A program made the translations under genes and the position numbers. Shown here in pieces: positions 15,633 to 54,793 of a stretch of 64,000 bases of DNA (within the stretch, counting starts at the first letter, position 1; each line of letters begins with the position of its first letter). The notes under the pieces were generated by a model that did not search any database, was not told the origin of the DNA, and saw only the letters and a list, made by a program, of their open reading frames with translations. The DNA lies in NCBI GenBank assembly GCA_963829525.1, contig CAWHIJ010000003.1:1536001-1600000 (forward strand), read 5' to 3'. Source of the DNA: an uncultured Actinomycetota bacterium (GTDB lineage: Bacteria; Actinomycetota; Actinomycetes; JAHEKZ01).

Positions 15633-17099
15633 ATGGTCTCCATGAGCCCTACCACCGCCGCGGTCACGCTGCCCGGCCATGACGCCGAGTCGCTCTACCG
15701 TGCGGTTGCCTCGAGGGACCGGCGGTTCGACGGACGGTTCGTGCTCGGCGTGACCTCGACGGGGATCTACTGCCGACCGTCGTGCCCAGCGCGCACGCCC
15801 AAGCGCGAGAACGTCCGCTACTTTGCGCTGCCCGCCGCGGCGGTGGCCGCTGGTTTCCGCGCCTGTCGACGGTGTCGTCCTGATCGGGTGTCACCCCGCC
15901 CCCACATCGCCGACGAGACTGGTCTCGTGGAGCGTGCCCTCACACTGATCGGACAAGGGGTCGTCGACGACGCGGGCGTCGCGGGTCTGGCGGAGCGGCT
16001 GTCGGTGAGTGAGCGTCACCTACACCGACTGCTGATGTCGTCGGTGGGTGCCGGTGCGCTGGGGCTGGCGCAGGCACGCCGCGCGCAGGCAGCCCGAACG
16101 CTGCTGGAGCAGACGCCCCTGCGCGTGACCGACGTGGCCTTCGCAGCCGGTTTCGGTAGCCTCCGCCAGTTCAACGACGTCATCCGCGCCGAGTACGGCG
16201 CGAGCCCGACTGAGCTGCGCCAGCGACCGGCTAAGCCCGACCGGCCAGCGGACGCGGGCTCGCTCGCGCTGCGGCTACCCGTGACGGTGCCGTGGGACGG
16301 CGCGCGCCTGTTGGCGTTCCTTGGGTCACGAGCGGTGGACGGCGTGGAGGCCCACGACGGCCGCCGCTACGTGCGCACGCTGGCCACCCCTGCTGGAGCA
16401 GCGATGCTCGCGCTCGAGCCCGGCGACGACGCGGTACACGTGCAAGTCACGGCGTACGACCTCGGCGCCATCGGTCCGGCGATGGTGGCCGTGCGCCGAC
16501 TCTGCGACCTGGCCGCTGACATCGAAGCCATTGAGTCTGGGCTGGACGCGGTGCCGGCGCTCGCTGCCTTGGTGCGCGCCCGGCCGGGTCTGCGGGTGCC
16601 CGGAGCCGTCGACGGCTGGGAGATCCTGGTGCGCGCGATCGTCGGACAGCAGGTCTCGGTCGCGGCGGCAAGGACTCTGCTCGGCCGGATCGTGGAGCGG
16701 TGCGGACCACCGGTTGGTGATGCTGCTCAGGGAGCGGTTACGCGGCTCTTCCCATCGGCCACTGAGGTCGCAGCTGGAGATCTGAGCGGTCTTGGGTTGA
16801 CCGGCCGCCGGGCGGCATCGCTTGAGGCAGCGGCCGAGGCGGCTGCGTCGGATGAGCTGCTACTGGAACCGGGGGATGACCTGCACGAGGCACGGCGCCG
16901 ACTGATGACACTACCGGGCGTAGGTCCCTGGACGGCCGAGTACGTGGCGCTGCGAGCACTGGCCGACCCCGATGCCTGGCCGGAAACCGACTTGGTGCTG
17001 GCGCGAGCGGCGTCCGGAATCGATATCGAACGGCTGCGCCCCTGGCGGGCGTACGCCGCAGTGCACCTCTGGACCCGATACAGCGAGGAGACGGCATGA
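15633..17099 (+). CDS. alkA: Ada-AlkA fusion: Ada Zn domain, AraC HTH and DNA-3-methyladenine glycosylase II
   Basis: TGIYCRPSC..GFRACRRC, AFAAGFGSLRQFN, AIVGQQVS, LPGVGPWTA HhH, WRPWR-like RPWRAYA. Confidence 0.93.
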   Translation: MVSMSPTTAAVTLPGHDAESLYRAVASRDRRFDGRFVLGVTSTGIYCRPSCPARTPKRENVRYFALPAAAVAAGFRACRRCRPDRVSPRPHIADETGLVERALTLIGQGVVDDAGVAGLAERLSVSERHLHRLLMSSVGAGALGLAQARRAQAARTLLEQTPLRVTDVAFAAGFGSLRQFNDVIRAEYGASPTELRQRPAKPDRPADAGSLALRLPVTVPWDGARLLAFLGSRAVDGVEAHDGRRYVRTLATPAGAAMLALEPGDDAVHVQVTAYDLGAIGPAMVAVRRLCDLAADIEAIESGLDAVPALAALVRARPGLRVPGAVDGWEILVRAIVGQQVSVAAARTLLGRIVERCGPPVGDAAQGAVTRLFPSATEVAAGDLSGLGLTGRRAASLEAAAEAAASDELLLEPGDDLHEARRRLMTLPGVGPWTAEYVALRALADPDAWPETDLVLARAASGIDIERLRPWRAYAAVHLWTRYSEETA

Positions 17100-17593
17100 G
17101 CCTGCGTGGGTGGACGATCGAGACGTCTTTGGCGCCCTGGAGCGTCGTGGTGGACGGTGATGTGGTGGTGGCGTCCGGCTTCTGCTCGCTCGAGCAGCTT
17201 GGCGAACGGTTACCGGGCGGCGCGGAGACGTTGTCGCGAGCAGATGCCACCGGGGTGGTCGCGGCAGCGGCCCGGGCCTACTTGGCCGGGGACGCAGGTG
17301 CGCTGGACGCTGTGGCGGTTCGCCAGCCGGGCGGAGAATTCCAGCAGCAGGCGTGGGCGGTGATGCGGGAAATTCCGGCTGGGCAGACTTGGTCGTACGC
17401 CGACATAGCGACGAAGGCGGGGCGACCTTCGGCGACTCGGGCGGCCGGGACTGCGTGCGCGCGGAACCTGGTGGCGCCGTTCGTTCCATGTCACCGGGTT
17501 GTGCGGTCGGATGGGTCTTTGGGCGGCTATGCCTATGGGCTCCCAGTGAAGCGGTGGCTGTTGGCGCTGGAGGGCGACTCGGCGGGAAACTAG
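17096..17593 (+). CDS. ogt: Methylated-DNA--protein-cysteine methyltransferase
   Basis: FQQQAW..IPAGQTWSY, VPCHRVV active site, GGYAYG; ATGA overlap with alkA. Confidence 0.93.
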   Translation: MSLRGWTIETSLAPWSVVVDGDVVVASGFCSLEQLGERLPGGAETLSRADATGVVAAAARAYLAGDAGALDAVAVRQPGGEFQQQAWAVMREIPAGQTWSYADIATKAGRPSATRAAGTACARNLVAPFVPCHRVVRSDGSLGGYAYGLPVKRWLLALEGDSAGN

Positions 17594-25930: not shown

Positions 25931-26999
25931 CTACCCCTCCCGCCGAGTAGCGGCGAAGGTGAGGTCGTCCAGGACCCCATGGGCAGGTTGGGGCAGCAGG
26001 GTCAGAGCTCGGTGTGACTCGTCCACGAGCGAGATGATGAGCTCTTCGACGAATGTCAGCGCGCCGGTCTCCTCGATCAGGCCGCGCAGTTCGTCGACGC
26101 CGGCGGCCGTCAGGTGCGGGTCGCCCAGGTGACGGTGCAGAAGTGCCAGTTGCGAGGGGCTGCTTCGCTCGTCCGCGACGGCGATGAGCACGGTGCGCTT
26201 TCCCTCACGCAGATCGTCGCCGGCTGGTTTTCCCGTAACGGCTGGGTCACCGAAGACGCCGAGGACGTCGTCGCGCAGCTGAAAGGCCTCGCCCAGCGGG
26301 ATGCCATAGGCGCTGTACTGCGTGAGGAGCTCGGGTGGGGCTCCGGCCAATGTGGCGCCGAGATGAAGGGGGCCCTCTACGGTGTACTTGGCAGCCTTGT
26401 AACCGAGCAACCCGAAGAGCCCGCTCGACCGATCCGCCACCCCTCGCCTGCTCGAGCAGGTCGAGATACTGGCCGGCCATCAGCTCGGTACGCATCCGGT
26501 CATAGACGGGTTTGGCTCGCACCAGGGCGTCCTGCGGAAGAGCTGCAGAGAAGAGCATCTCGTCGGCCCAGGTGAGGGTGAGGTCACCCAGCAGGATCGC
26601 AGCGCCCGTCCCGAACGACTCCGGTGAACCGACCCACTGAGCGCTGCGGTGCAGACCCGCAAACTTCCGATGCGCGCTCGGATGGCCGCGTCGGGTATCG
26701 GAGTCGTCCATGACGTCGTCGTGGATCAGCGCGCAGGCCTGGAGGAACTCAAGTGCTGCGACCGCTCGGATGATCTCGGTGCAGTCATCACCGCCGGCTC
26801 CGCGCCACCCCCAGTACGCGAAGGCGGGGCGCAGCCGCTTGCCGCCCGCGAGAAGGGTGCGGGCGGCGTCCAGGATGGGGAGCAGCTCTTCCCCAACGGC
26901 GTCGAGCACCGGCTGTTGGCTTTCGAGGAAAGCCTCGAGCTCTTTGTGCACGCGGACGCGGAGGTCTTCAGCATCGAGCGGAGAGCGCTGCGAGGACAT
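25931..26999 (-). CDS. crtE: Geranylgeranyl diphosphate synthase (apparent +1 error near 26402)
   Basis: GGKRLRP, LIHDDVMDDSDTRRG (FARM), GQYLD, then YKAAKYT and FQLRDDVLG in the next frame. Confidence 0.9.
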
Positions 27000-33443: not shown

Positions 33444-33452
33444 AGAGCTTAT

Positions 33453-33468
33453 TCGAACACATGTTCGA
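33453..33468. promoter_or_regulatory. LexA operator (actinobacterial SOS box)
   Basis: TCGAAC-ACAT-GTTCGA, exact match to TCGAAC-N4-GTTCGA, upstream of dnaE2/dinB. Confidence 0.92.
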
Positions 33469-33540
33469 ACCTGAGCCGGTCGGGTGGGGTGCTGACCTCG
33501 ACCCTCACCGCCCGCCCGACCGGCTCCCCGGCTTCCTGGT

Positions 33541-33564
33541 CCAACTGATGGACCAACTGATGGC
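33541..33564. repeat. 12-bp tandem duplication CCAACTGATGG(A/C) x2
   Basis: Read directly in the 5' leader of the SOS cassette. Confidence 0.8.
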
Positions 33565-33587
33565 TCGACCTGACAGGAGACAGCCCG

Positions 33588-33923
33588 ATGCGACGGATCG
33601 ACGAGTCGATTGAGTCGTTGACTCCCGTTGCTAGCGGTGAGACGGCGCCGCTGGCCTTCCGGTGGCGCGGCCGACGCTATGTCGTCGGAGCGGTATTGGC
33701 GCACTGGGTCGAGACGGGTGCGTGGTGGCGTCGGGTCGCATCGCGCCCCAGCTCCGGCTTCGATGAGCTGCCCGACCCCGAGCGGTGGCTCTGGCGGGTC
33801 GAGGCGTGCCGCGGGGCACAGACCGGAGTTTTCGACCTTTGCCTGGAAGTCGACAACCGTCCCGACGAGAGCTCCTGTGATCGCGGTCCAGCGCGCTGGT
33901 CCTTGTATGCGATCTACGACTGA
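33588..33923 (+). CDS. DUF6504-like small protein
   Basis: PLAFRWRGRRYVVGAVLAHWVETGAWW..WRVEA..GVFDL..WSLYAIYD pattern; AGGAG RBS. Confidence 0.8.
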   Translation: MRRIDESIESLTPVASGETAPLAFRWRGRRYVVGAVLAHWVETGAWWRRVASRPSSGFDELPDPERWLWRVEACRGAQTGVFDLCLEVDNRPDESSCDRGPARWSLYAIYD

Positions 33924-33976
33924 CCACCCGACTGACCACCCGACTGACCTACCGACTGACCTACCGACTGACCTAC
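33917..33976. repeat. Five tandem 12-bp units: CGACTGACCACC x2, then CGACTGACCTAC x3
   Basis: Read directly; the first unit contains the DUF6504 stop codon. Confidence 0.92.
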
Positions 33977-33993
33977 CTGAAGGGATGGCCCCC

Positions 33994-34437
33994 ATGTCCA
34001 TCGACTTGTCCGTCGACCACGCCATCGCTCGACGAACCCCTCGGGGGTCGTCGGCTGGGGTCCTCGACCTGCTTGCTGCTGCGCACCGCGGCCTCACCGA
34101 GGCGGTGCTCGAGCCACGGGCCAGTCGCCGCTACGCCGTCGCCCACCTGGCGGCGCTCCGGGCGGCTGCCGCCGTGCTGGCCACCCGTGCTCGTCCGACC
34201 GGCCGCCGTGGCCCGCGCAGCGCCTGGGATCTTCTCGGCCAGGCTGCCCCCGAGCTTGCTGAGTGGGCGGCTTTCTTCGCCGCTGGCGCCGGCAAGCGGG
34301 CGGCGGCCGAGGCTGGCCTGGACGCGGTCACGCCCCGGGAGGCCGACGACCTGCTCCGGGACGTTGAAACCTTCCTAGCGCTGGCCGAGACCACCGTCGG
34401 TGTCCCACACCAGACCTCGCTGCCCCGTGTCAGCTGA
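33994..34437 (+). CDS. SAV_6107-family HEPN-domain protein
   Basis: RYAVAHLAALRAAAAVLA.RA, SAWDLL..APELAEWAAFFA.GA.KRAAAEAG, READDLLRD..FL; start 33985 or 33994. Confidence 0.82.
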   Translation: MSIDLSVDHAIARRTPRGSSAGVLDLLAAAHRGLTEAVLEPRASRRYAVAHLAALRAAAAVLATRARPTGRRGPRSAWDLLGQAAPELAEWAAFFAAGAGKRAAAEAGLDAVTPREADDLLRDVETFLALAETTVGVPHQTSLPRVS

Positions 34438-34462
34438 CGAACCGGTGTCAGCTGACGACCCG
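34427..34462. repeat. 18-bp tandem duplication GTGTCAGCTGACGA(A/C)CCG x2, each copy containing the palindrome GTCAGCTGAC
   Basis: Read directly; spans the HEPN stop codon and the spacer before dnaE2. Confidence 0.88.
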
Positions 34463-34485
34463 CGCCCTGTTCGGGTCTGCTCTCG

Positions 34486-37400
34486 GTGACCGGCTCTTCT
34501 TCTTTTCCACACCTGCATGTCGCCTCCGGCTGGTCGCTGCGTCACGGCGCATCCAGCCCAGAGGCGCTCGTCTCCGTCGCGGCTGACCGCGGCCTCGCCG
34601 TTCTCGGTCTGACCGACCGCGATGGTGTCCGTGGCGCTGTGCGTTTTGCCCGCGCCACCCTCGCCGCCGGGATCGCTCCGGTCTTCGGCGCCGACCTCGC
34701 CCTCGCGCCACCCCCGAACCCGGGACGTGCCCCCGAGCGAGCTCGTCGTACGCCGGTTCGAGGAGGCCGCACTCGTGACCTCCGACTGCCCAGGGTCACG
34801 GTGCTGGCGCGTGGCCCGCATGGCTGGGCGGCGCTCTGTCGCCTGGTCTCCGCTGCCCATGCCCAAGCCGAGGCAGCCGGACGTCGGGGGTACCCGACGG
34901 TCGACGCCGACCTGGTCGCTCACTACGCGGCCGAAGGTGCCTTGGTGGTGCTGCTCGGTCCCGACTCCGACGTCGGTCGGATGCTGGCAAGGCGTCGCCC
35001 CGACCTCGCGACGCTGGCGTGGCAGAGATGGCGAGACCGCATCCCTGCGCTGTGGTGCGAAGTGGTCAACCATCGTGGCGCTGACCCGGTTGGTCGGTCG
35101 GCGCCGTTCGCCGGTCGGATGCTCGGATGGGCGCACGAGCAGCAGGCAGACACCTTGCTGTCCAACGCGGTTCGCTACGCCCGTCGCGAGGACGCCCCGG
35201 TCGCCGACGTGCTCGACGCCGCACGTCAGCTGGTTCCGCTTGACCTGCGCCACATCGATCGTCGCACCGGCGAGGGCTACCTGAAGTCGTCATCACAGAT
35301 GGCCGAGATCGCCGCCGAGGTCGCTCGTCTGTCCGGCGTCGGCACCGAGCGCTCCACCAGCCGCGCGTTGCTCGCCGCCACTGAACGGCTCGCGCAGCAG
35401 TGTGTCCTGTCCCCAGTGGCCGACCTCGGTCTCGGCTCGGTGCACTTTCCCGAGCTCGAGGTGGTCGACCCGACCGCTGCCGTGGCCGGACGTGCGCCCG
35501 ATGCCGTGCTGCGTGAGCGGTGCGCAGCCCGTTGGTCGGCCCGCGAGCTGCCGACCGGCGGGCAGGCCGGACGCGAGGCGCGCGACCGTCTGGAGCACGA
35601 GCTCGGCATCATCGCCAGCCTTGGCTACGCCACCTACTTCCTCACCGTCGCCGACGTCGTCGACCTGATCCGCTCGATGCAGATTCGGGTTGCCGCACGT
35701 GGTTCGGGTGCTGGGTCACTGGTTACCTACCTACTCGGAATCTCAGGGGTCGATCCGGTTCGGCACGACCTTCTCTTCGAAAGGTTCCTCTCTCCGCTTC
35801 GCCAGGCGCTGCCCGACATCGACATCGACGTCGAGTCAGCGCGGCGCCTTGAGATCTACACTCAGATCTTCGAGCGCTTCGGCACTGCTCGCGTCGCTTG
35901 TGTCTCCATGGCCGATACCTACCGCGTCCGGCACGCGATTCGTGATGTCGGTGCGGCGCTTGGTCTGCCGCCCTCTGAGATCGACATGATCGCGAAGGCG
36001 TTCCCACACATTCGCGCCAAGGACGCGCAGAACGCTTTGCGTGAGCTGCCAGAGCTGCGGGCCAGCCGGATCGCCGACGACCCGCGGATGACGTTGCTCT
36101 TCTCGCTCGTCGAGCGTCTCGACGGTTTGCCGCGTCACCTCGCACTGCACCCGTGTGGCGTTCTGCTCTCCGACGCCACGCTGCTCGATCGCACACCGGT
36201 CGAGCAGAGCGCGATGGGTTTTGCCATGAGCCAGTTCGACAAGGACGACGTCGAGCACCTTGGCCTACTCAAGCTCGATGTCCTCGGCATCCGCATGCAG
36301 TCGGCGATGGCCTATGCCCTTGACGAGATCGAACGGGTCGACGGCCCGCAGCAGCGCCCTGACCTCGACAGCGTGCCGTTCGACGACCTGGCGACCTTCG
36401 ACCTCATCCGTTCCACGCACACCCTTGGGTGCTTTCAGATCGAGTCACCTGGTCAGCGTGAGCTGGTCGGCAAGTTCGCCCCCGAAACCTTCGACGATCT
36501 CATCATCGACATCTCGCTCTTCCGTCCCGGTCCGGTGAAGTCCGACATGGTCCGGCCCTTTCTCCATGCACGACATGGCTGGGCTGAGCCGCAGTACCTG
36601 CACCCCGACCTTGAGCCGGTACTGCGCTCCACCTACGGCGTTGTCGTCTTCCACGAGCAGGTGATCGACATGTTGCATGTCATCGCCGGGTGCTCCCGGG
36701 CCGAAGGTGACGAGAAGCGGAGGGCCCTCGGTGATCCCGATGGCCAGGCTGAGACGCGCGAGTGGTTCTATCGCTGTGCCCGAATGCGTGGGTACGACCT
36801 GCCGACAATCGAACGCATCTGGGATGTCCTGCGTGCGTTCGCCTCCTTCGGGTTCTGTAAGGCACACGCTGCAGCTTTTGCGCTGCCGACCTACCAGTCG
36901 GCGTGGCTCAAGACGCACCACACGGCTGGCTTCCTCGCTGGCGTCCTCACCCACGATCCCGGCATGTACCCGAAGCGGTTGATCCTCGACGACGCCCGAC
37001 AGTTCGGCGTCACCGTTTTGCCGCTCGACGTCAACGCATCCCGGACCGGCTATCGGGTCGAGCGGGTCGAGGTGGTCGACCCCGCTGACGCCCCTGCGCC
37101 GCCGCCCCGCACTCTCCCCGTCGCCGACTCCACGACCAGCCGGGCGCGCGGCGTCCTTGACCATCCGGCGCTTCCGGATGCCAGCGGTTACGGCATCCGC
37201 ATCGCGCTCGCCGAGGTCAAAGGAATCAGTGACGCCGAGGTCGAGCGGATCATTGCCGGGCAGCCTTTTCGTTCACTCACCGATTTCTGGCACCGCGCTG
37301 CCGTCTCGCGTCCGGTCGTCGAGCGGTTGGTGCTCGCCGGAGCCTTCGACAGGCTGCACGGCATCGACCTCACTCTTCCCGCTGCATCGGCGCGACGCCG

Positions 37401-38265
37401 GATCACCCGCCGAGACCTGCTGCTGGCAGTCGCTGAGCTCGACCGTTGGACCGCGATGCCCACGTTCCGTCGGGCCAAGTCTGGAGCTCGGCCTTCAGCA
37501 GTGGCCGGACCGGGCACCCAGCTCTCCTTCCCGCTCGGCCCCAGCGACGAGCAGGTGGCCCCCTCCGGTCTGCCGGAGATGACTGGCGCTGAGCAGGTCA
37601 GGGCAGAGCTCGACGTCCTCGGTCTGGACGCCAGCCGCCATGTCGTTGACTTCTACACCCCGTTGCTGCGTTCGCTCGACGTCGTGCGCTCCCGCGACCT
37701 GCTCACCTGTCGCTCGCGCAGCGAGATCTTGGTCGCGGGTGTGAAGGTGGCCACTCAGACACCGCCGATCCGTTCCGGCCGACGGGTCGTCTTCGTCACC
37801 CTCGACGACGCCACCGGCCCGGTCGATGCGACCTTCTTCGAAGATGCTCAAGGCCCCTATGCCGCGACGCTCTTCCACTCGTGGCTCCTGCTGATCCGGG
37901 GTGAGATACGCCGGACCGGTCCTCGGGGCGTCTCACTGCGTGCCACAGGGTGCTGGGAGCTTTCTGGTCTGTACGACCTGTGGCAGCGCAGTGGCACCGC
38001 CGCCATCCACGAGGTGCTCGACACGCCACCTCTGCTCAGCCCCTTGGGCACTAGCGCCGAGGAGGTGCAAGCTCCGGCTGGTCCGGCCCTGGTGGAGCCA
38101 GCCGGAATCACGGCTGGGGGAATGGGACGACGGCGTGTCCTGGTCCACCCCAGCGGCTTCCGCCAGTCGCCGTACGCAGACGTCCGCCCGGCAGGTGATG
38201 ACGTGAACCGCGGCACACCACCGCGCAAGCTCTGGCACTCCAGTCCAGGGAGCTCAGGTGGCTGA
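34486..38265 (+). CDS. dnaE2: Error-prone DNA polymerase III alpha subunit (DnaE2, actinomycete LWHSSPGS-tail type)
   Basis: PHP HLHVASGWS..LTDRDG, ARGSGAGS, PDIDIDVE, KLDVLG, FGFCKAHAAAF, OB fold QTPPIRSGRRVVFVTLDD. Confidence 0.92.
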   Translation: MTGSSSFPHLHVASGWSLRHGASSPEALVSVAADRGLAVLGLTDRDGVRGAVRFARATLAAGIAPVFGADLALAPPPNPGRAPERARRTPVRGGRTRDLRLPRVTVLARGPHGWAALCRLVSAAHAQAEAAGRRGYPTVDADLVAHYAAEGALVVLLGPDSDVGRMLARRRPDLATLAWQRWRDRIPALWCEVVNHRGADPVGRSAPFAGRMLGWAHEQQADTLLSNAVRYARREDAPVADVLDAARQLVPLDLRHIDRRTGEGYLKSSSQMAEIAAEVARLSGVGTERSTSRALLAATERLAQQCVLSPVADLGLGSVHFPELEVVDPTAAVAGRAPDAVLRERCAARWSARELPTGGQAGREARDRLEHELGIIASLGYATYFLTVADVVDLIRSMQIRVAARGSGAGSLVTYLLGISGVDPVRHDLLFERFLSPLRQALPDIDIDVESARRLEIYTQIFERFGTARVACVSMADTYRVRHAIRDVGAALGLPPSEIDMIAKAFPHIRAKDAQNALRELPELRASRIADDPRMTLLFSLVERLDGLPRHLALHPCGVLLSDATLLDRTPVEQSAMGFAMSQFDKDDVEHLGLLKLDVLGIRMQSAMAYALDEIERVDGPQQRPDLDSVPFDDLATFDLIRSTHTLGCFQIESPGQRELVGKFAPETFDDLIIDISLFRPGPVKSDMVRPFLHARHGWAEPQYLHPDLEPVLRSTYGVVVFHEQVIDMLHVIAGCSRAEGDEKRRALGDPDGQAETREWFYRCARMRGYDLPTIERIWDVLRAFASFGFCKAHAAAFALPTYQSAWLKTHHTAGFLAGVLTHDPGMYPKRLILDDARQFGVTVLPLDVNASRTGYRVERVEVVDPADAPAPPPRTLPVADSTTSRARGVLDHPALPDASGYGIRIALAEVKGISDAEVERIIAGQPFRSLTDFWHRAAVSRPVVERLVLAGAFDRLHGIDLTLPAASARRRITRRDLLLAVAELDRWTAMPTFRRAKSGARPSAVAGPGTQLSFPLGPSDEQVAPSGLPEMTGAEQVRAELDVLGLDASRHVVDFYTPLLRSLDVVRSRDLLTCRSRSEILVAGVKVATQTPPIRSGRRVVFVTLDDATGPVDATFFEDAQGPYAATLFHSWLLLIRGEIRRTGPRGVSLRATGCWELSGLYDLWQRSGTAAIHEVLDTPPLLSPLGTSAEEVQAPAGPALVEPAGITAGGMGRRRVLVHPSGFRQSPYADVRPAGDDVNRGTPPRKLWHSSPGSSGG

Positions 38266-38277
38266 GAGGATGCCCTG

Positions 38278-39534
38278 GTGAGCAGGCAACAGCTCGGGCG
38301 TGGCATGGACGGCGGTGACCAGCCCGCCAGTGTCACCTCGCGCCGCGAGGTGGCCGATGACACCGGCTGCGACGTCCTGCATGTCGACATGGACGCGTTC
38401 TACGCATCGGTCGAACTGCTTCGCCACCCTGAGCTTGTCGGCACTCCCGTTGTCGTCGCAGGGGGAGGCACCCGCGGAGTCGTCCTGTCGGCCACATACG
38501 AGGCCCGTGCGCTCGGCGTCCACTCAGCGATGCCGACGTCACGTGCCCGCCGCCTGTGTCCCAACGCCACTTTCCTTGCGCCACACCATGAGGACTACGC
38601 GCGCATTTCATCGGGTGTCATGGCGATCTTCGGATCGGTCACTCCTGTCGTAGAGCCGCTCAGCCTCGATGAGGCCTTCCTCGACGTGCGTGGTGCGCAA
38701 CGAAGGCTCGGGTCACCGGCTGAGATCGGTGAGCTGATCCGTACCAAGGTCCAGGACGAACAGGGCATCACCTGTTCGGTCGGCGTCGCATCCACCAAGT
38801 TCGTCGCCAAGCTCGCCTCGGGGCGGTGCAAGCCCGATGGTCTGCTCGTCGTCCCAGCCGACAAGGTCATCGACTTCCTCCACCCACTCCAAATAGGCGC
38901 CCTGTGGGGAGTCGGTGACAAGACCGAAGAGGCATTGCACCGTCTTGGGCTGCGCACAGTCGCAGATCTGGCGAATACACCGATAGGAACGCTCGAACGC
39001 GCTATCGGCCCAGCTGCTGGACGGCACCTGTGGGAGCTGGCGTGGGGGCGCGATGAGCGCAGTGTCGTCGCCGATACCCAGGAGAAGAGCATCGGCAGGG
39101 ACCGTACCTTCGAGACCGACGTTGACGACGTCGAGGTGGTCTACCGCGAACTGCTGGCCCTCTCGCAGACGGTGGCGCGAGCACTCCGGGGCCGCGAGCT
39201 CGCCGGGAGGACGATCGCGATCCGGGTGCGGTTTGCCGACTTCACCACGATCACCCGCTCGCGCACCTTGGCGCATCCGACCGATGTCGCCCGTGACATC
39301 TACGCAACGGTTGTTGCCCTCTTCGACGCCCTCGGGCTTGATCGAGCTCGACTGCGCCTCGTGGGCGTTCGGGTGGAGGGCTTGGTCGACGGGTCGACCG
39401 TCGCCCACCAACTCACCTTCGACGAGCGCCCCGAAGCTTGGCGCGAAGCTGAGCGGGCCTCTGACCGGGCCGCCGACCGGTTCGGCCGAGGGGTGGTCCG
39501 CCCGGCAAGCCTGGTCGAGTCGCCCGACCCCTGA
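38278..39534 (+). CDS. dinB: DNA polymerase IV (Y family)
   Basis: HVDMDAFYASVE, YEAR, SLDEAFLD, KFVAKLAS..KPDG, LWGVG, RLVGV, C-terminal QLTF clamp-type motif. Confidence 0.95.
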   Translation: MSRQQLGRGMDGGDQPASVTSRREVADDTGCDVLHVDMDAFYASVELLRHPELVGTPVVVAGGGTRGVVLSATYEARALGVHSAMPTSRARRLCPNATFLAPHHEDYARISSGVMAIFGSVTPVVEPLSLDEAFLDVRGAQRRLGSPAEIGELIRTKVQDEQGITCSVGVASTKFVAKLASGRCKPDGLLVVPADKVIDFLHPLQIGALWGVGDKTEEALHRLGLRTVADLANTPIGTLERAIGPAAGRHLWELAWGRDERSVVADTQEKSIGRDRTFETDVDDVEVVYRELLALSQTVARALRGRELAGRTIAIRVRFADFTTITRSRTLAHPTDVARDIYATVVALFDALGLDRARLRLVGVRVEGLVDGSTVAHQLTFDERPEAWREAERASDRAADRFGRGVVRPASLVESPDP

Positions 39535-39725: not shown

Positions 39726-40104
39726 ATGCCGCTCTCTGAGCACGAGCAGCGCCTGCTCGAGCAGATGGAGCGTCAGCTCTACGCCGACGACCCCAAGTTG
39801 GCATCGACGCTTCGCGGAAGTGGTCGGTCGCTGCGTTCTCGACACCGGCTTGTCCTTGGTGCCCTGGGCGTAGTCCTTGGTCTGGCCGTGTTGGTTGCCG
39901 GAGTTGCGTCTCAGTTCTGGCCCGTCGGCGTGGCTGGCTTCCTCGTCATGCTGGGCGGCGGCTGGTGGGCGAGTACCGGTTGGCAAGGTGCGACGCGCAA
40001 CGCCTCTGCGGCGCCGCAGCAGTCACCAGAAGAGCTCACAACGCTCGGGATTCATGAACCGCATAGAAGAGCGCTGGGATCGCCGTCGCGACGGCGACCA
40101 GTAG
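39726..40104 (+). CDS. DUF3040-family membrane protein (apparent frameshift near 40000)
   Basis: MPLSEHEQRLLEQMERQLYADDPKLA, two TM helices; conserved tail SGFMNRIEERWDRRR lies in the frame of ORF 39877..40104; GAGGAGG RBS. Confidence 0.88.
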
Positions 40105-42617
40105 CCGAGCTGCAGCACGCACCGCACGGCCTTCTGCTTGGCGGCCCCGTCCACTTGGTATGGCCTGGTCCACTTGGTCTTATCCGGTTGGCGCTTGCTG
40201 ACGTGACTTCGGCGTTCGCCAGTGCTGCCAGCGATCGGCCAGCCACTCGGCTGCGTGGTTCCGCCGTCGGCAAGGGCCAAGCGTCCAGAGGTGGGCCACC
40301 AGATGGCCCGACGTCGGTCGCGGGGGGAGATAGCCGCGTACAGGTCGCCACGGATGTCGCCGGCCAGCTGCTCTGATCTGTCCGGGACGGTCAGCGCGGT
40401 CGGCGGAACCGCGGTAGCGCAAGAACTCGACCCAGCGAGCCAACTGGCGCAGCTGTGCCGCTCGGGTGGGGCTGAGCCCACCTCGGGTCGGAATACGCTC
40501 GGCCAGATCGCGTGGCGTCTCGGTCGGCAGTGGACGCAGGTCGACATCGGTCGCCGCGTCGAGGACTTCCGCCCAGGCCGCGAGTATCGCGCTGTCGATT
40601 GACCCAGCATGGCGCCACCGTGACCGACGAACCATGACCGACGCCGCCTTGGGCGCGGCGATGGCGGCACCGCCCACCGCGATGACGAAGCAGCCACAGC
40701 AGGACCGTCGAGCCGTTGCCTTGCTCGGTGTCGGTGGCGGCCGAGCTCGACCCGATCGACTGGCCGCCTCGGTTGGCTCTGAGTCACCTCACGAGGTCGG
40801 GCGTCGTCCACCGCCGTTGCTGAGAGATCCGCCGCCGCGGCGGCAGAACCACACCACCGCCATCGTCGCGCCTCCACCCGGGTTGGCGGTGCTTGTCTTC
40901 TTGGGGTACGGGTGCCCAGCTCGGCGTAGCTCCACCATCGCCACCCCCTGGTGTGGGCTCGAAGCGGACCCAGCCCACGCCTTCGAACCACAGCTCGGGC
41001 CAGGCGTGCGCGTCGTGCGTCGTGACGACCCAGGTGCCGTCGTCGTCCTGTTCGCCGGGGGTGAATCCGACCTGCACCCGGGACGGGATGTCAAGGCTTC
41101 GGGCCATCAGCGCCATCGTCGCTGCGAACTGCTCGCAATATCCGCTGCGGTCTCGCAGGAAGTCTTCTAGTGCATCTGTGGCGTTTCCTTCCACCGTGTC
41201 GAGGCTGTAGGTGAAGTTGGTGCGGAACCAGTTCTGCAGCGCAAGCGCGCGGCCGTAGTCAGTCGTTGCGTCGGCGGTGACGTCCTCGGCCAGTGGAGTC
41301 AGTCGCTCCTCGATGCCGTCGGGGAGGTCGAGCCATTGGTAGAGGCGAGTTGTTGACCGATGGGTCCGCCGGGGGTGCTGCCTGCAACTGCTCGATGGTG
41401 GGCGTGATCTCCAGAGCGGTCGCGGTGTACTCCTGACCAAAAGCCGAGCCCTCCTCCTCGGCGCTGAAGACGTCGAAGGTCTGCTCGTCCCACCTCCAGT
41501 CGCCTGCGATATCGACCTTGGTGACCGGATAGGGGAGTGGCAGTCGGGGGGTGTCGAGAGCCCCGACGGTGATGTCGTAGCTCACCGGCGTCCGCGCGAT
41601 TGCGTCGGAGAGCCCAGGGGGGCTCGGTAGACCCGCCGGAGGCCTGTTGGTCGCTGCCCGCTGCCATTTCCTCGAGCGTCCAGGTCGTGCCATTGAACTT
41701 GTCGAGGGTGGCGATGCGCAGGTACTGAGGCGTCTGGGCCGCAGTTGTGTAGAAGAGGACCGCGCTGTCGTCCTGTTGAGTCAGATTGCGCTGCAGGTCG
41801 GTGATCGGGTTGATCGTGACGACGGTGCGGGCACTTGGTGACGACGCACCGCTGCCGTCACCCCCACTGCCGTCACCAGAGCCGCCACCGAACCTGCCGT
41901 CGCCGAGGCTGGGAAGAATCACCGGGACGATGACGGCAACGGTGAGCGCTGCGGCACCCAGCCTGCGGCCCGTGCCGCCCACGGAATGCACCTTCCCGTC
42001 GGCTCCGCCATCGATAGGCCGACCCCAGCGGGACAGTTCGACACGCCCGTCCTCAAGCAGGAGCAGCAACCAGCCAATGCCTGCCGCCAGGAACAACGGC
42101 CACGGGACGCCGTCAGGCAGCACCGTTGCCGGCACGAGGTAGAGCGTTAGCAGGGGGATGCCGGCGAGTGCCGCACGTCGACCACTGACCGCAATGGCAT
42201 CGACCGCCCAGGCGATGAGCGCCACGCCACTGACCACGAGGAACTGAATCCCTGCCGTGGCGGTCACCGGCGCGGTCTCCTGCGTGATCACGGTGTTTCC
42301 GTCACGTGCGAGATCGGCGAACACTCGCCAACGTCGCCATCTGGGAGGATCGCCGAACGCCGCGGTGTCTCTGGCGAAGAGCAGCGTCAGCAGCAGCAGC
42401 AGGCCACACGCCCTGCGCAGCCACGACCACCCATGTGGGGAGACCGAGGGCCCGGCCGGCAGCTCCGATCACCGCGACTGTTGCGATGGCGATCACCGAC
42501 ATGGCGAACCACGGACCGGTGAGCGTGGGGGAGAGCGCGAATGTCGTCAGCAGCGACGGCGACAGCGGCGGCCAGGGTGGGACGTAGCTGGTGCGACAAG
42601 TTTGCTCGCCTGCTCAT
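40023..42617 (-). CDS. Membrane transglutaminase-like protein (TgpA/DUF3488 type); several apparent frameshifts, 3' end uncertain
   Basis: TM-rich N-terminal half, YLRIATLD, catalytic GYCEQFAATMALMARSLDIPSRV..GF and HAWPELWF..GWVRFEPTP, spread over several frames. Confidence 0.8.
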
Positions 42618-43898: not shown

Positions 43899-44896
43899 TC
43901 AGCCGGCCGGTATCGCCGTGCTGTCGACCAACGACTCCACGACCGAGACGCTGGTGCGTCGCGCGATCTGGGCCTCAGCAGTCAGCAGGAGACGATGGGC
44001 CAGAACCGGAACAGCCAGCGAGCGGACGTCGTCGGGAAGGACGAAGTCGCGGTCGTCGAGTGCTGCAGACGCCTTGGCCGCTCGGATCAGCTGGAGCGTG
44101 GCTCGCGGTGACGCACCCAATCTGAGGTCAGGGTGGCGTCGTGATGCGATGACTAGGTCGACTGCGTACCGGTGTACCTCGGTGCTGACGTGCAGGTCGC
44201 GGACCTGGTCGATCAGCGCCTGCGACGTCGGATGCCGTGGCCACGGGAACGATGTCATCAAGTGGGCGACCTGCACCGTGCACGGCGAGCATTTCCATCT
44301 CGGCCGTCCGGTCGGGATAGCCCATCGACAGTCGCGCCATGAAACGGTCCCGTTGCGCCTCTGGCAGCGGGTAGGTGCCCTCCATCTCGATGGGGTTCTG
44401 GGTCGCCACCACCATGAAGGGCGTCGCCAGTGGGTACGTCGCACCGTCGACGGTGACCTGGTGCTCCTCCATCGCCTCGAGCAGTGCCGACTGCGTCTTG
44501 GGTGACGCGCGGTTGATCTCGTCGCCGATCACGATGTTGGCGAAGACCGCTCCCGGACGGAACTCGAAGTCGCGCGTCTCCTGATTGAAGACGCTGACCC
44601 CGGTGATGTCGCTGGGCAGCAGGTCGGGAGTGAACTGGATGCGGCGAACGGTGCAGTCGAGTGCTCGGGCCAGTGACTTGGCCAGCATCGTCTTGCCGAC
44701 GCCAGGCACGTCTTCGATCAGCAGGTGCCCTTCGGCCAGCAGCGTGACCAGGGCAAGGCGGATGGCGTCTGGTTTGCCTTCGATGACGCCCGCAACAGCG
44801 TCGCCGATCTTGGCGCCGCGAGCAGACACCCCTGGCGCTTCGGGTGGAATCGCCCGCCTCTGCCGGTGAGTGCGCTGAGCCGTCGACCGCGGTCAT
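43899..44896 (-). CDS. moxR: MoxR-family AAA+ ATPase (apparent frameshifts near 44830 and 44220)
   Basis: [63 protein letters not shown]; start uncertain. Confidence 0.88.
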
Positions 44897-50875: not shown

Positions 50876-52257
50876 TTCCGACGAGCCTCATCGATATTGC
50901 AGAGGCCGTCGGTGGACAGCTGGTGAGCGTCGCTGACCCCACAGCTGTGGTCGTGCACGTGTGTTCAGACACCCGCGACGTCATTCCCGGCAGCCTCTTT
51001 GTGGCGCTTGAGGGGACGCGCGTTGATGGCCACGACTTCGCCGAAGCCGCGGTGGCCTCTGGTGCGGTAGCGGTCCTTGGCTCCCGACCATCCGGATCAC
51101 CCATGATCGTGGTCCCCGACGTGCTTGTCGCACTTGGCCAGCTGGCAAGATTTCACATCGACCGACTCACCGACACGACGGTGATCGGGGTCACCGGGTC
51201 GGTAGGCAAGACCACGGCGAAGGATCTGATCGCGTCGGTGTTGGAGACCGATGGGCCCACGATCTCACCGCCTGGATCGTTCAACAACGAGCTTGGGCTG
51301 CCACTGACCGTGCTGTCGGCCGATCAAGACACGCGGTACCTCGTGTTGGAGATGGGTGCTCGGGGGCTGGGCCACATCGAGTACCTCTGTTCGATCGCGC
51401 CACCCGACGTGGGGGTTGAGCTCGTGGTGGGCACCGCCCACCTCAGCGAGTTCGGCAGCCGGGCGGCCATCGCCAACGCGAAGGCCGAGCTCGTCCGGGC
51501 ACTGCCTCCTGGCGGAACGGCGGTGCTGAATGCCGATGACGCCCTGGTTCAGAAGATGGCCGGTGAAACGGCGGCTGCTGTGACGTGGTTCGGCCAGCGC
51601 CATGGCGCGCAGGTCAGCGCCGAGGGCCTCTCCTTCGACACGTTGGACCGGGCCAGGTTCACCTTGCGCACACCGGTCGGTTCGGCGCTGGTCGAAATGC
51701 AGTTCGTGGGTGGTCACGCCCTACCGAACGCGCTTGCCGCGGCCGCCGTCGGCTGGTCGTTGGGTATGGACACCGACGCGATCGCCAGGGCACTCTCTTC
51801 GGCCACACCTCGTAGCAAGTGGCGCATGGAGGTAACCGAGCGTTCCGATGGGCTGATCGTCATCAACGATGCGTACAACGCCAGTCCTGAGGCGGTGCGG
51901 GCAGCACTCAAGTCGCTCAAGCAGATTGCTGGCAATCGACGCAGCTGGGCGGTTCTCGGCGAGATGCTCGAGCTCGGTGACCAATCTGGAGCCGAACACG
52001 ATGCCATCGGACGCCTCGTCGTGCGCTTGGATGTGCAACGGTTAGTCGTCGTCGGAGAAGGCGCCAAGCCTATGCACCTGGCTGCTGGGCTCGAAGGGTC
52101 GTGGGGACGGGAGTCCATGTTCGTTCCAGATGTCGCGGGCGCGATGGCGATCTTGCACGAAGAGGTGCGTCCGGACGACGTGGTCCTCGTGAAGGCGTCC
52201 AGGGCTGCGGGCCTCGAGGTTGTCGCTGCTGAGCTCTTGGGCGGAGACGTCGAATGA
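50872..52257 (+). CDS. murF: UDP-MurNAc-tripeptide--D-Ala-D-Ala ligase
   Basis: TGSVGKTT, FNNELGLP, LEMG, NDAYNASP, LGEMLELG, LVKASR. Confidence 0.95.
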   Translation: MIPTSLIDIAEAVGGQLVSVADPTAVVVHVCSDTRDVIPGSLFVALEGTRVDGHDFAEAAVASGAVAVLGSRPSGSPMIVVPDVLVALGQLARFHIDRLTDTTVIGVTGSVGKTTAKDLIASVLETDGPTISPPGSFNNELGLPLTVLSADQDTRYLVLEMGARGLGHIEYLCSIAPPDVGVELVVGTAHLSEFGSRAAIANAKAELVRALPPGGTAVLNADDALVQKMAGETAAAVTWFGQRHGAQVSAEGLSFDTLDRARFTLRTPVGSALVEMQFVGGHALPNALAAAAVGWSLGMDTDAIARALSSATPRSKWRMEVTERSDGLIVINDAYNASPEAVRAALKSLKQIAGNRRSWAVLGEMLELGDQSGAEHDAIGRLVVRLDVQRLVVVGEGAKPMHLAAGLEGSWGRESMFVPDVAGAMAILHEEVRPDDVVLVKASRAAGLEVVAAELLGGDVE

Positions 52258-53339
52258 GGCTAGTGCTGGTCGCGGTCATCGTCAGCCTCGTCATCGGGTT
52301 CGTGGTGACCCCCTTGTGGGCCAAGTGGCTGAGCACCCGGGGCTACGCCCAATCCATCCGCGACGCCGAGGAGCTGGGCTACGCCGTCCCCGACCACGCA
52401 GGCAAACGGGGCACACCGTCCATGGGTGGCGTTGTCATCGTCGCCGGAACAGTCGTGAGCTACGCGGCCGCTCACCTCATCGCCGGTAGTGGTCCGAGCG
52501 CGGCGGCGATGCTCGTGTTGTTCCTCATGGTGGGTCTGGCATCCGTCGGATTCGCCGACGACTACATCAAGATTTTTCGGAGACGGTCGACCGGACTGCG
52601 GGTCAAGACCAAGCTCATCGGACAGGCCGCCGTAGCGATTGTCTTTGCGCTTCTCGCCCTGCAATTCCCCAGTGTTGAAGGGCTGACACCTGCTACGCAG
52701 TACATCTCGTTTGTTCGTGACACTGCCGTCTTCTTGCCGATTGGCATCTATGTCCTGTGGGTCTGGTTCATGGTGGCGGCCACTTCCAACGCGGTTAACC
52801 TCTCCGACGGGCTCGACGGGCTCGCCACCGGAGCGGCTTCGATGGTGTTCGGCGCGTACGTGACTGTGGGCCTGTGGCAGTACAACCAGAGATGCGCTGA
52901 TAGTCGTGCTTCCGAACTGCTACGAGGTGCGGAATCCCCTCGATCTGGCTGTCGTCGCAGCTGGAGTCATGGGTTCGTGCTTCGGGTTCCTCTGGTGGAA
53001 CACGTCACCAGCTCGCATCTTCATGGGGGACACGGGATCACTTGGCTCTCGGCGGCGCCATGGCCGGCATCGCGATCTGCACCCAGACCGAGCTGCTGCT
53101 TCCGGTGATGGCTGGCCTGTTCGTGGCCATCACTGCGTCGGTCATCATCCAGATCGCCTCGTTCAAGACGACGGGGAAGACGAGTCTTCCTGATGTCCCC
53201 GATCCAGCACCACTTCGAGATCAAGGGCTGGCCCGAGGTCCAGATCGTCACCAGATTCTGGATCATCTCCGGTCTCTTCACCGGAGCCGGTTTCATGCTC
53301 TTCTACACCGAGTGGCTCGGTGGGGGCGGCATCGGGTGA
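52254..53339 (+). CDS. mraY: Phospho-MurNAc-pentapeptide transferase (apparent frameshifts near 52900, 53040, 53180)
   Basis: [44 protein letters not shown] across successive frames. Confidence 0.92.
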
Positions 53340-54793
53340 CCGCCTCGTCTGCTGTCTCCGAGTGGCTACGGGCGGCCGACCGAGCAGCCGACTGGTCAGG
53401 CGTCCGCGCGTGTGTCGTTGGCCTCGGAAAGAGCGGGTTCGCAGCAGCTGACGCCTTGCTGCGAGTGGGCGCGCGAGTCGAGGTCGTCGAGGCCGGTGAG
53501 GCGTCGAGATCAGGCTCACTGACAGGAGCGGGCCCAGATCCTCCAGACTCTGGGAGCAGCAGGTCCGGCTGGGTGTCCGCGGCGACGCCGGGATCGAGTG
53601 CGACCTCCTGGTCCCCTCTCCGGGCATCCCCCCGCACCATCGTTGGATCACAGGTGCCAGGGCCGGGACCATCTGGAGCGGCGAGCAGCTTGCCTGGAAC
53701 CTGCGCGTCTCCACCGTTCCGTGGCTCACCCTCACCGGAACCAACGGCAAGACGACCACGACCCAGCTGCTTGATGCAATGCTCAGAACAGCAGGTCTGC
53801 GGAGCCTTGCCGCCGGCAACATCGGGGTGCCCCTCGTAGAAGCTGTCTTCGCCGAGCCGCAGCCGGAGGTGCTGGTCGTCGAGCTGTCCAGCTTCCAGCT
53901 GCACTTCACCGAGACGGTCTCAGCGCACTCGTCGGCACTGCTCAACATTGCCGAGGACCACCTTGACTGGCATGGCTCATTCGACGCCTACATCGCCGAC
54001 AAGTCCAAGATCTTCACCAGGGTCGAGCACACCGTCGTCTACAACCATGACGATTCGCGCACAGAGGCGCTGGCCGAGGCTGCCGACGTGATGGAGGGCT
54101 GCCGTGCGGTCGGTTTCACCCTCGGTGTTCCTGGACGGGCGATGTTGGGTGTTGTCGACGGAGTCCTGGTCGACCGCGCCTATGGCGCCAACCGCGCCAC
54201 GCATGCTGAGCCGATCGTCGATGTTGACGCGCTTGCGATGGCCGGAGCGCATAACGTCCGCAACGTGTTGGCAGCAGCGGCACTGGCGCGATCGTTTGGA
54301 GTAGCTATCGCTGACGTACGTTCTGGGGCGCATTGGATTTGAGGTCGACGCTCATCGGGGCGAGCTTGTGGGGACCTTCGGCGATGTGCGATTCGTAGAT
54401 GACTCAAAGGCGACCAACGTGCTGGCCGCAGACGTGGCTCTTGCCGCGGCCAGCGGGCAGGTGGTGTGGATCGCGGGGGGACTGGCCAAAGGGGGCTCCT
54501 TCGATGCCCTTGTGCAGCGGCACCGGTCCAAGCTTCGCGCCGTGGTGCTCTTAGGCACTGACCGCTCGCTGATCGCCCAGGCACTCGCGCGACACGCGCC
54601 CGAGGTCCCGGTGATCGAGGTGCCGGACGGGGAGACTGAGCCTATGACTGACGCTGTTCGGATTTCGGCCTCGGTGGCCCAGCCGCACGACACCGTGCTG
54701 CTCGCTCCGGCGTGCGCGTCCATGGACCAGTTCTCCGACTACCAGGCCAGGGGTCAAGCTTTCAGTTCAGCCGCGGCCCGGCTCCGCCGCTGA
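53336..54793 (+). CDS. murD: UDP-MurNAc-L-Ala--D-Glu ligase (several apparent frameshifts)
   Basis: [52 protein letters not shown]. Confidence 0.92.

Follow-up and report, generated by a model that had tools for sequence, protein, structure and literature searches.

A LexA-box-preceded operon-like unit of DUF6504, HEPN, DnaE2B-type and DinB genes in an uncultured actinobacterium

In many bacteria, mutation induced by DNA damage, including mutation to drug resistance, is driven by mutasomes built around DnaE2. Here, we describe a four-gene unit from an uncultured Actinomycetota bacterium (assembly GCA_963829525.1, contig CAWHIJ010000003.1, positions 1,536,001 to 1,600,000), located within a stretch of 64,000 nucleotides that we refer to as the window. 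The genes all lie on the + strand downstream of a LexA (SOS) box, in the order DUF6504, HEPN, DnaE2B, DinB, and we consider it probable that they make up an SOS-regulated translesion or mutagenic polymerase operon of the DnaE2B-[ImuB-C]-PolY(-RecA) type, in which ImuB-C denotes the C-terminal domain of ImuB. Units of this type have already been predicted in print by comparative genomics (2013, 2019 and 2026). The action of DnaE2 without ImuA and ImuB has so far been a purely computational proposal, of which the window provides a clean and intact example.

The unit and its two polymerases

The features of the unit are as follows:

33453-33468, no strand assigned: LexA (SOS) box TCGAACACATGTTCGA, a perfect match to TCGAAC-N4-GTTCGA and the core of a palindrome of 18 base pairs (bp) at 33452-33469
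33588-33923, + strand: DUF6504 protein, 111 amino acids (Pfam PF20114, E 1.3e-17, 64.4 bits against a cut-off of 24.2)
33917-33977, no strand assigned: 12-bp tandem repeat in 5.1 copies (Tandem Repeats Finder score 87), spanning the stop codon of the DUF6504 gene and the spacer to the HEPN gene
33994-34437, + strand: HEPN_SAV_6107 protein, 147 amino acids, or 150 if started at 33985 (Pfam PF18726, E 3.3e-33, 114.6 bits)
34486-38265, + strand: DnaE2-type C-family polymerase, apparently of the DnaE2B kind, 1259 amino acids (Pfam PHP, DNA_pol3_alpha, finger, HHH_6 and OB)
38278-39534, + strand: DinB, a Pol IV-type Y-family polymerase, 418 amino acids (Pfam IMS, IMS_HHH and IMS_C)

The palindrome enclosing the box, TTCGAACACATGTTCGAA, is perfect over its 18 bp, and apart from the box there is no other perfect match to TCGAAC-N4-GTTCGA within the 64 kb of the window, which has a G+C content of ~66%; when up to one mismatch is allowed, two matches are found compared to 0.28 expected. 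We take TCGAAC-N4-GTTCGA to be the actinobacterial LexA consensus, in line with the form GAAC-N4-RTTY. The latter is the SOS box quoted for Streptomyces (PMC3273824). The spacers are short, with 120 bp between the box and the DUF6504 gene, 61-70 bp from there to the HEPN gene, 48 bp between the HEPN and DnaE2B genes and 12 bp between the two polymerase genes, and the single terminator-like hairpin of the unit lies within the HEPN gene, compared to a mean of 2.9 after shuffling. The four genes hence form an operon-like unit preceded by a LexA box, and the box, its conservation in related loci, the short spacers and the lack of terminators suggest that LexA controls the unit and that the genes are read as a single transcript. 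A second repeat, of 18 bp in two copies, lies over the stop codon of the HEPN gene (34427-34462).

The C-family polymerase scores below the cut-offs of both NCBIfam models concerned (636.5 against 939 for error-prone polymerases and 626.7 against 1002 for DnaE). Its PDIDID (D444/D446/D448) and KLD (D598) motifs do not vary among the 22 orthologues aligned, and QLSFPL at residue 1012, kept as QL[AST][LF]xL in 33 of 35 orthologues, is presumably a hexapeptide-type β-clamp-binding motif of the QLxLxL type. The protein is 46.4% and 49.9% identical to the DnaE2 proteins of a Streptomyces plasmid and of Nonomuraea, respectively, and ends in ...LWHSSPGSSGG, nearly as these two do. Indeed, this tail, which has no Pfam match, is conserved as ...LWH[SA]SPGS[SP]G (window 37990-38262; L001 for the plasmid and L002 for Nonomuraea). 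Given that S. coelicolor DnaE2 is assigned to DnaE2B in PMC12926913 and that the window enzyme is closer to the Streptomyces and Nonomuraea enzymes than to imuB-linked DnaE2, the window enzyme appears to belong to the DnaE2B clade, an assignment based on pairwise identity and the C-terminal motif.

The Y-family polymerase matches the NCBIfam model for DNA polymerase IV (NF003015) with 380 bits against a cut-off of 367. Both DMDAF and SLDEA are present; all 46 orthologues have DMD and 45 of them have LDE, and the enzyme is apparently catalytically intact. Its tail contains QLTF and, further on, ...ASDRAADRFGRGVVRPAS, a string present in each of the 45 orthologues whose sequence extends to the C-terminus. 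The string ASDRAADRFGRGVVRPAS fits the RecA-NT-like strings in Table S4 of the 2019 survey, for example ...SVDAIRSRFGHSSIVRAS, and that of RecA, ...ALAQIDKQFGKGSVMRLG (PMC6511836).

The initial annotation of this DNA had reported a perfect SOS box followed by four co-oriented genes with short spacers, namely a DUF6504-like gene, a SAV_6107-type HEPN gene, an intact DnaE2 (PDIDID, KLD) and an intact DinB (DMDAF, SLDE), and these observations are borne out. It had also noted that neither ImuA nor an inactive ImuB is encoded in the window. This agrees with our searches: among the 59 further predicted proteins of the window, Pfam identified no second IMS or Y-family gene, RecA or LexA, and when the 64 kb were searched by phmmer with the ImuB and the putative ImuA' of a related locus (L066), only DinB was matched, with 36.4 bits. 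The ImuB and ImuA'-like queries likewise found neither gene within ~9 kb of the 49 DnaE2B loci surveyed below, and they match only L059, L066, L069, L078 and L079.

The DUF6504 protein and the related loci

The ImuB-C domain, the module of ImuB reported to contact DnaE2, was defined by Aravind et al. in 2013, who also described it as a standalone small protein in operons with DinB, DnaE2 or UmuC (PMC3765255). ImuA-less variants were described by Timinskas and Venclovas in 2019 (PMC6511836), and operons without ImuA and ImuB that have a standalone ImuB-C, DnaE2 and a Y-family polymerase appear in both of these papers and in a survey from 2026 (PMC12926913). The latter places a DnaE2B clade in genomes without imuA and imuB, and describes an actinobacterial DnaE2B group, named DnaE2B-[ImuB-C]-PolY-RecA, whose partners are a standalone ImuB-C, RecA and a PolY that appears to be active. 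DUF6504 is not named in the accessible parts of these three papers, nor was it found elsewhere in the literature searched.

We propose, with moderate confidence, that the DUF6504 protein is a standalone ImuB-C. When a DUF6504 profile of 104 sequences (106 near-length homologues were found) was aligned by hhalign with a profile of ImuB C-termini (138 sequences, from 150 diverse ImuB-C-bearing proteins out of 809 matches), the score was 27.0 (P 4.7e-4) over 69 collinear columns. The reversed DUF6504 profile scored 14.5, and the best of 200 column shuffles, which include at least two runs counted as score zero, reached 21.1, with none out of 200 attaining 27.0. The collinear regions share the patterns ...V..W.GPWP..ERWW in the ImuB C-termini versus ...V..VLAHWVETGAWW in the DUF6504 protein and, likewise, ...ARFQ... 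versus ...WRVEA..., and both the DUF6504 protein and the ImuB proteins of L059, L066, L069, L078 and L079 end in W-x-x-x-A-[IL]-Y-D. An AlphaFold2 model of the DUF6504 protein is all-beta (pLDDT 81), and a fold search of the PDB with this model gave 0 matches at E<=0.001, which matches the description of ImuB-C in the 2026 paper as all-beta with no relative in the PDB (PMC12926913). A sequence search of the PDB with the DUF6504 profile returned only spurious repeats of designed Kelch proteins, a search of the ESM Atlas gave DUF6504 clusters only and no further lead, and no NCBIfam model matches either the DUF6504 or the HEPN protein.

The gene neighborhood was surveyed in loci found by a HEPN alignment search with one genome per species, of which the best 80 of at least 582 relatives were kept and classified by hidden Markov model (HMM) matches on all open reading frames (ORFs), with flanks of ~9 kb. 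The sample is biased towards relatives of the window, every locus has the HEPN gene by construction, and the counts are given regardless of shared ancestry. The following classes were obtained:

DUF6504-HEPN-DnaE2B-(methyltransferase)-DinB, in this order: 40 of 80 loci
DUF6504-HEPN-DnaE2B without dinB in the flank: 1 (L026)
DUF6504-HEPN-DnaE2B, contig ending downstream: 5
HEPN-DnaE2B: 3 (2 with the contig ending upstream; L058 with a weak DUF6504, 48.6 bits with a wider HMM)
DUF6504-HEPN-DinB without DnaE2: 3
HEPN-DinB: 7
HEPN without a polymerase gene within ~9 kb: 16
HEPN beside an imuA'-imuB-dnaE2 cassette: 5

DUF6504 is present in all 47 DnaE2B loci that have upstream DNA, and in Nonomuraea (L002) it adjoins DnaE2B with no HEPN gene between them. 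This co-presence and adjacency suggest that DUF6504 acts as a partner of the DnaE2B polymerase, likely as a DnaE2-binding adaptor. Among ten matches to longer DUF6504-bearing proteins, none has a Y-family domain; three carry HEPN and DUF6504 together, one of them also PHP, and these fused proteins are probably read-through gene calls. A tblastn search of plasmids with DUF6504, a method that missed the Nonomuraea DUF6504 found by HMM, gave one Thermaerobacter plasmid with an uninformative neighborhood. In two Pseudonocardia-type loci, the SOS box and the HEPN gene are separated by small ORFs (L036:188-514 and L029:4394-4849; 8.0 and 12.7 bits, respectively) that look like highly divergent ImuB-C/DUF6504 genes, and loci that appear to start with HEPN may therefore be over-counted.

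A perfect SOS box is found in the equivalent upstream region of 60 of the 80 loci, and slightly further upstream in three more. The 1.25 Mb of locus DNA contain 69 perfect boxes altogether, 60 of which fall inside the 56 kb of upstream regions and 9 outside. Full units have a perfect box in 36 of 40 cases, with the other four comprising two in which the contig ends upstream, one with a one-mismatch box and one with none. The box is also perfect in the five loci beside a canonical cassette (5/5) and before the HEPN gene in 7 of the 16 polymerase-less loci (7-8 when counting further upstream), and it is seen in none of four Streptomyces loci. A gene for a translesion polymerase lies within ~9 kb on the same strand in 64 of the 80 loci. 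The HEPN or DnaE2B gene is followed by a gene for a class I S-adenosylmethionine-dependent methyltransferase in 50 of the 80 (for example, L012:13544-14293), which in most loci separates DnaE2B from DinB and is absent from the window, and a DUF3040 gene downstream of HEPN closes the block in 58 of the 80. Of the linkage of SOS box, DUF6504, HEPN, dnaE2 and dinB that the initial annotation had envisaged, the gene order and the box recur in related loci, and DUF6504 tracks DnaE2B, whereas the HEPN gene does not.

In the loci with a canonical cassette, imuA'-imuB-dnaE2 directly adjoins HEPN, on its downstream side in L078 and L079 and on its upstream side in L059, L066 and L069. Each of the last three carries another perfect SOS box, which precedes the cassette at a distance of ~5.9 kb from HEPN. 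In L060, L064, L067 and L080, HEPN_SAV_6107 is found at another locus, beside a BldD-like regulator and the pyr operon, with a two-mismatch box only.

The HEPN protein

The HEPN gene likely starts with the ATG at 33994 rather than that at 33985, because GAAGGGA is found 8 nt upstream of the former. Its product is a clear member of the HEPN_SAV_6107 family, for which at least 5561 homologous clusters exist, and an alignment of 25 sequences has 47 invariant columns. The AlphaFold2 model is a helical bundle (pLDDT 86) whose best matches in the PDB are HEPN domains, namely 2hsb (probability 1.00, TM 0.52/0.59), 1wol, and the HEPN toxins 7ae6 and 7ae8. The last helix reads R118-EADDLL-R125-D (READDLLRD) and has no histidine, which means that the canonical Rx4-6H motif is absent there, and the protein is for this reason probably not a canonical HEPN RNase. 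An earlier helix has an invariant R49-x4-H54. A published survey of HEPN domains marks SAV_6107 with "No" in a column that, judged by the neighboring rows, records conservation of the motif, and lists the family without gene context or function in the part accessible (PMC3710099). No gene for a nucleotidyltransferase (MNT) lies next to the HEPN gene.

The link of this gene to an SOS box and its translesion polymerase neighborhood appear to be unreported. In the literature searched, SAV_6107 is mentioned once, in the accessible part of the above survey (PMC3710099), and no combination of HEPN with LexA and DnaE2, or with "SOS box" and LexA, was found. In Table S4 of PMC6511836, Conexibacter woesei is listed as iPolY->ImuB-C->{1}->DnaE2, with one unnamed gene at the position of HEPN. 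A complex prediction of DnaE2 residues 1-340 with DUF6504 and HEPN, in which HEPN was scored, gave 0.00 and 0.00 against a mark of 0.32; it was run without controls and speaks neither for nor against binding. We favor the reading of HEPN_SAV_6107 as an SOS gene that resides in a conserved chromosomal block over that of a dedicated mutasome subunit, because the gene stays where the polymerases are absent. There is some, albeit small, likelihood that it is an unrecognized member of the LexA regulon that works with translesion polymerases, for example as a regulator or adaptor of DnaE2B/ImuB-C/DinB or of the adjoining ImuA'B-DnaE2; if so, the DnaE2B-[ImuB-C]-PolY-RecA module would gain a fifth, HEPN-fold component. 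It is flagged here as a widespread and highly conserved HEPN-fold gene that is likely an SOS gene.

Proposed mechanism, alternatives and surroundings

The closest published type is DnaE2B-[ImuB-C]-PolY-RecA, the fourth DnaE2B group of the 2026 survey, exemplified by Tessaracoccus lapidicaptus (PMC12926913). It shares with the window its actinobacterial origin and the lack of imuA and imuB nearby. In the window, a HEPN gene lies between the putative ImuB-C and DnaE2 genes; "HEPN" was not found in the main text of that paper or in a part of its supplement that has no DnaE2 rows. The mycobacterial ImuA'-ImuB-DnaE2 mutasome is likewise SOS-controlled and likewise joins DnaE2 to an ImuB-C module and to a Y-family protein that bears a clamp-type motif and a RecA-NT-type motif, the latter being putative in the window. 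It differs in that the putative ImuB-C of the window is a separate 111-residue protein, the Y-family catalytic residues are kept and there is no ImuA'; instead of the dead full-length ImuB and RecA-like ImuA or ImuA' of the canonical mutasome, the only IMS protein of the window is an active-type DinB. The polymerase itself is also set apart from imuB-linked mutasomes, as it is 30.6-31.9% identical to the DnaE2 proteins of L059, L066 and L079, and ends in LWHSSPGSSGG rather than in their ...SRDFR.

The nearest studied relative is that of S. coelicolor, which is the sole source of experimental data on a DnaE2B. Like the window, Streptomyces has a DnaE2B-type gene followed by a Y-family gene, the dnaE2-dinB2 pair, with an SOS box and induction by ultraviolet light (UV; ~6-fold) and methyl methanesulfonate (PMC3273824). 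Unlike the window, DinB2 is inactive and there is no ImuB-C, according to the 2019 and 2026 papers (PMC6511836 and PMC12926913), and in the Streptomyces plasmid copy, the IMS domain of the Y-family gene is missing its N-terminal half. In the four Streptomyces loci, HEPN is found elsewhere, beside methyltransferase and DUF3040 genes and without an SOS box. Geobacter lexA-imuB-C-polY (cited in PMC6511836) also combines a standalone ImuB-C with an active Y-family polymerase in a damage-induced single transcript, but it has neither DnaE2 nor HEPN, includes lexA in the operon, and is proteobacterial. With respect to the SAV_6107 family (PMC3710099), the HEPN protein of the window is a clear member by both Pfam and fold, and its context of SOS box and polymerases was observed in the present analysis.

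The following model would account for the unit. LexA would bind the palindrome at 33453-33468, and DNA damage would lead to RecA-stimulated LexA cleavage and to the synthesis of one transcript covering all four genes. Homology and strict co-occurrence suggest that the beta-domain of the candidate ImuB-C binds DnaE2B, in the same way as ImuB-C has been modelled on the PHP domain of DnaE2. DinB, which has a β-clamp-type motif and a RecA-NT-like tail, may dock on both the clamp and RecA, and would thereby replace the dead ImuB as well as ImuA. DnaE2B may also reach the clamp without ImuB, through its own QLxLxL-type motif. DnaE2B, ImuB-C and DinB would then jointly insert opposite lesions and extend, while the HEPN gene would be co-transcribed as a separate SOS gene of the block.

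Several points weigh against this interpretation. The HHalign probability for DUF6504 and ImuB-C is just 33%, and the profile-profile score is modest. The ImuB-C HMM reaches at best 9.3 bits with DUF6504 sequences compared to 14.7 bits for the best shuffled sequence, and Pfam PF20114 does not match three ImuB proteins at E<=1. The Pfam model for the RecA-NT motif, DUF4113, does not match the DinB tail. The absence of imuA and imuB applies to the 64-kb window and the ~9-kb flanks of related loci. The operon type is known from computation alone, and we infer co-transcription, LexA binding and the protein contacts from sequence. Finally, deletion of dnaE2 in S. coelicolor left UV survival and UV mutagenesis unchanged (PMC3273824).

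Alternatively, the unit could be a set of independent neighboring SOS genes, with DinB acting alone as Pol IV, DnaE2B and ImuB-C forming a separate enzyme, HEPN having another role, and the gene order reflecting an old syntenic block upstream of the dcw genes. This is less probable than a joint operon but deserves serious consideration, because conservation of the block HEPN-(DnaE2B)-methyltransferase-(DinB)-DUF3040 does not depend on the presence of the polymerases, as illustrated by the three DUF6504-HEPN-DinB loci without DnaE2, the seven HEPN-DinB loci and the 16 without a polymerase, and because the methyltransferase gene intervenes between DnaE2B and DinB in most loci and the window adjoins TgpA/DUF58/MoxR and dcw genes. 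However, AlphaFold support for such modules as complexes is reported in PMC12926913, the gap between DnaE2B and DinB is only 12 bp in the lineage of the window, and the motifs of the DinB tail are conserved.

It is rather unlikely that the DnaE2B mutasome includes HEPN_SAV_6107 as a true subunit, be it structural or regulatory, such as one that gates access to the fork. The HEPN gene is positioned between DUF6504 and DnaE2B in all 49 DnaE2B loci sampled, it is under the same SOS box, its product is very strongly conserved, and it adjoins the canonical imuA'-imuB-dnaE2 cassette in 5 of the 80 loci. Its presence is, however, guaranteed by the sampling, and the gene occurs without DnaE2B or DUF6504 in 31 of the 80 loci. 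Conversely, DUF6504 and DnaE2B are adjacent without it in Nonomuraea, and no HEPN gene is seen in the Streptomyces plasmid dnaE2 locus (L001), nor did tblastn of plasmids with HEPN find any match, a weak negative in view of the tblastn miss noted above and of a low-complexity filter that may hide this Ala-rich protein. The far better conservation of HEPN compared to DUF6504 also suggests a different, housekeeping partner.

The initial annotation had gone further, proposing a candidate alternative damage-induced system independent of ImuB, with two uncharacterized accessory proteins, in a four-gene unit that it did not know to have been characterized. A categorically new mutasome of this kind is very unlikely. 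Neither imuA nor imuB is found in the window and DUF6504 goes unmentioned in the literature searched, but the DUF6504 protein appears to be ImuB-C by homology, the HEPN gene persists without DnaE2 or DUF6504, often with its own SOS box, and the type of unit is already described (PMC3765255, PMC6511836 and PMC12926913), with only the HEPN part apparently unreported. What remains of the proposal is the LexA box and two intact-type polymerases; independence from ImuB is not supported, since with DUF6504 as ImuB-C, the unit has no full-length ImuB yet would keep the DnaE2-binding part of it. A toxin-antitoxin or defense pair of DUF6504 and HEPN placed upstream of the polymerases by chance is the least credible of all: many HEPN proteins are RNase toxins and the fold search does return MNT-HEPN toxins (probability 0.7-0.9), but the last HEPN helix has no Rx4-6H motif, no MNT gene is nearby, the HEPN survey gives "No" for SAV_6107 (PMC3710099), the locus is fixed, syntenic and chromosomal, and at least 26 of the 80 loci have HEPN but no DUF6504, which tracks DnaE2B instead.

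The reading of the unit as a DnaE2B-[ImuB-C]-PolY(-RecA) operon is made testable by the strict tracking of DnaE2B by DUF6504 and by the conserved clamp-type motif of DnaE2B itself. Cultivable carriers among the related loci include Modestobacter and Klenkia, while the Nocardioidaceae are represented by a metagenome-assembled genome only (L081).

The window is an ordinary chromosomal region. Upstream of the unit are Tad pilus genes, an Ada-AlkA/Ogt pair, a PASTA kinase gene and carotenoid genes. Downstream, the block is bordered by the DUF3040 gene (39726-40376, + strand; Pfam DUF3040, E 9.3e-30), followed by TgpA, DUF58 and MoxR genes and then by the dcw cluster, from mraZ to ftsZ/sepF. The Ada-AlkA fusion regulator/glycosylase and the subsequent O6-methylguanine methyltransferase (15633-17590) represent a second DNA-damage system of the window. 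Several genes look split or short (40787-42324, 53779-54790, 52254-53105, 44131-44829 and 25934-26440): TgpA is seen as two ORFs that overlap in different frames and a murD-like ligase also as two ORFs, while MraY, MoxR and a polyprenyl synthase are short; these presumably reflect assembly frameshifts or pseudogenes.

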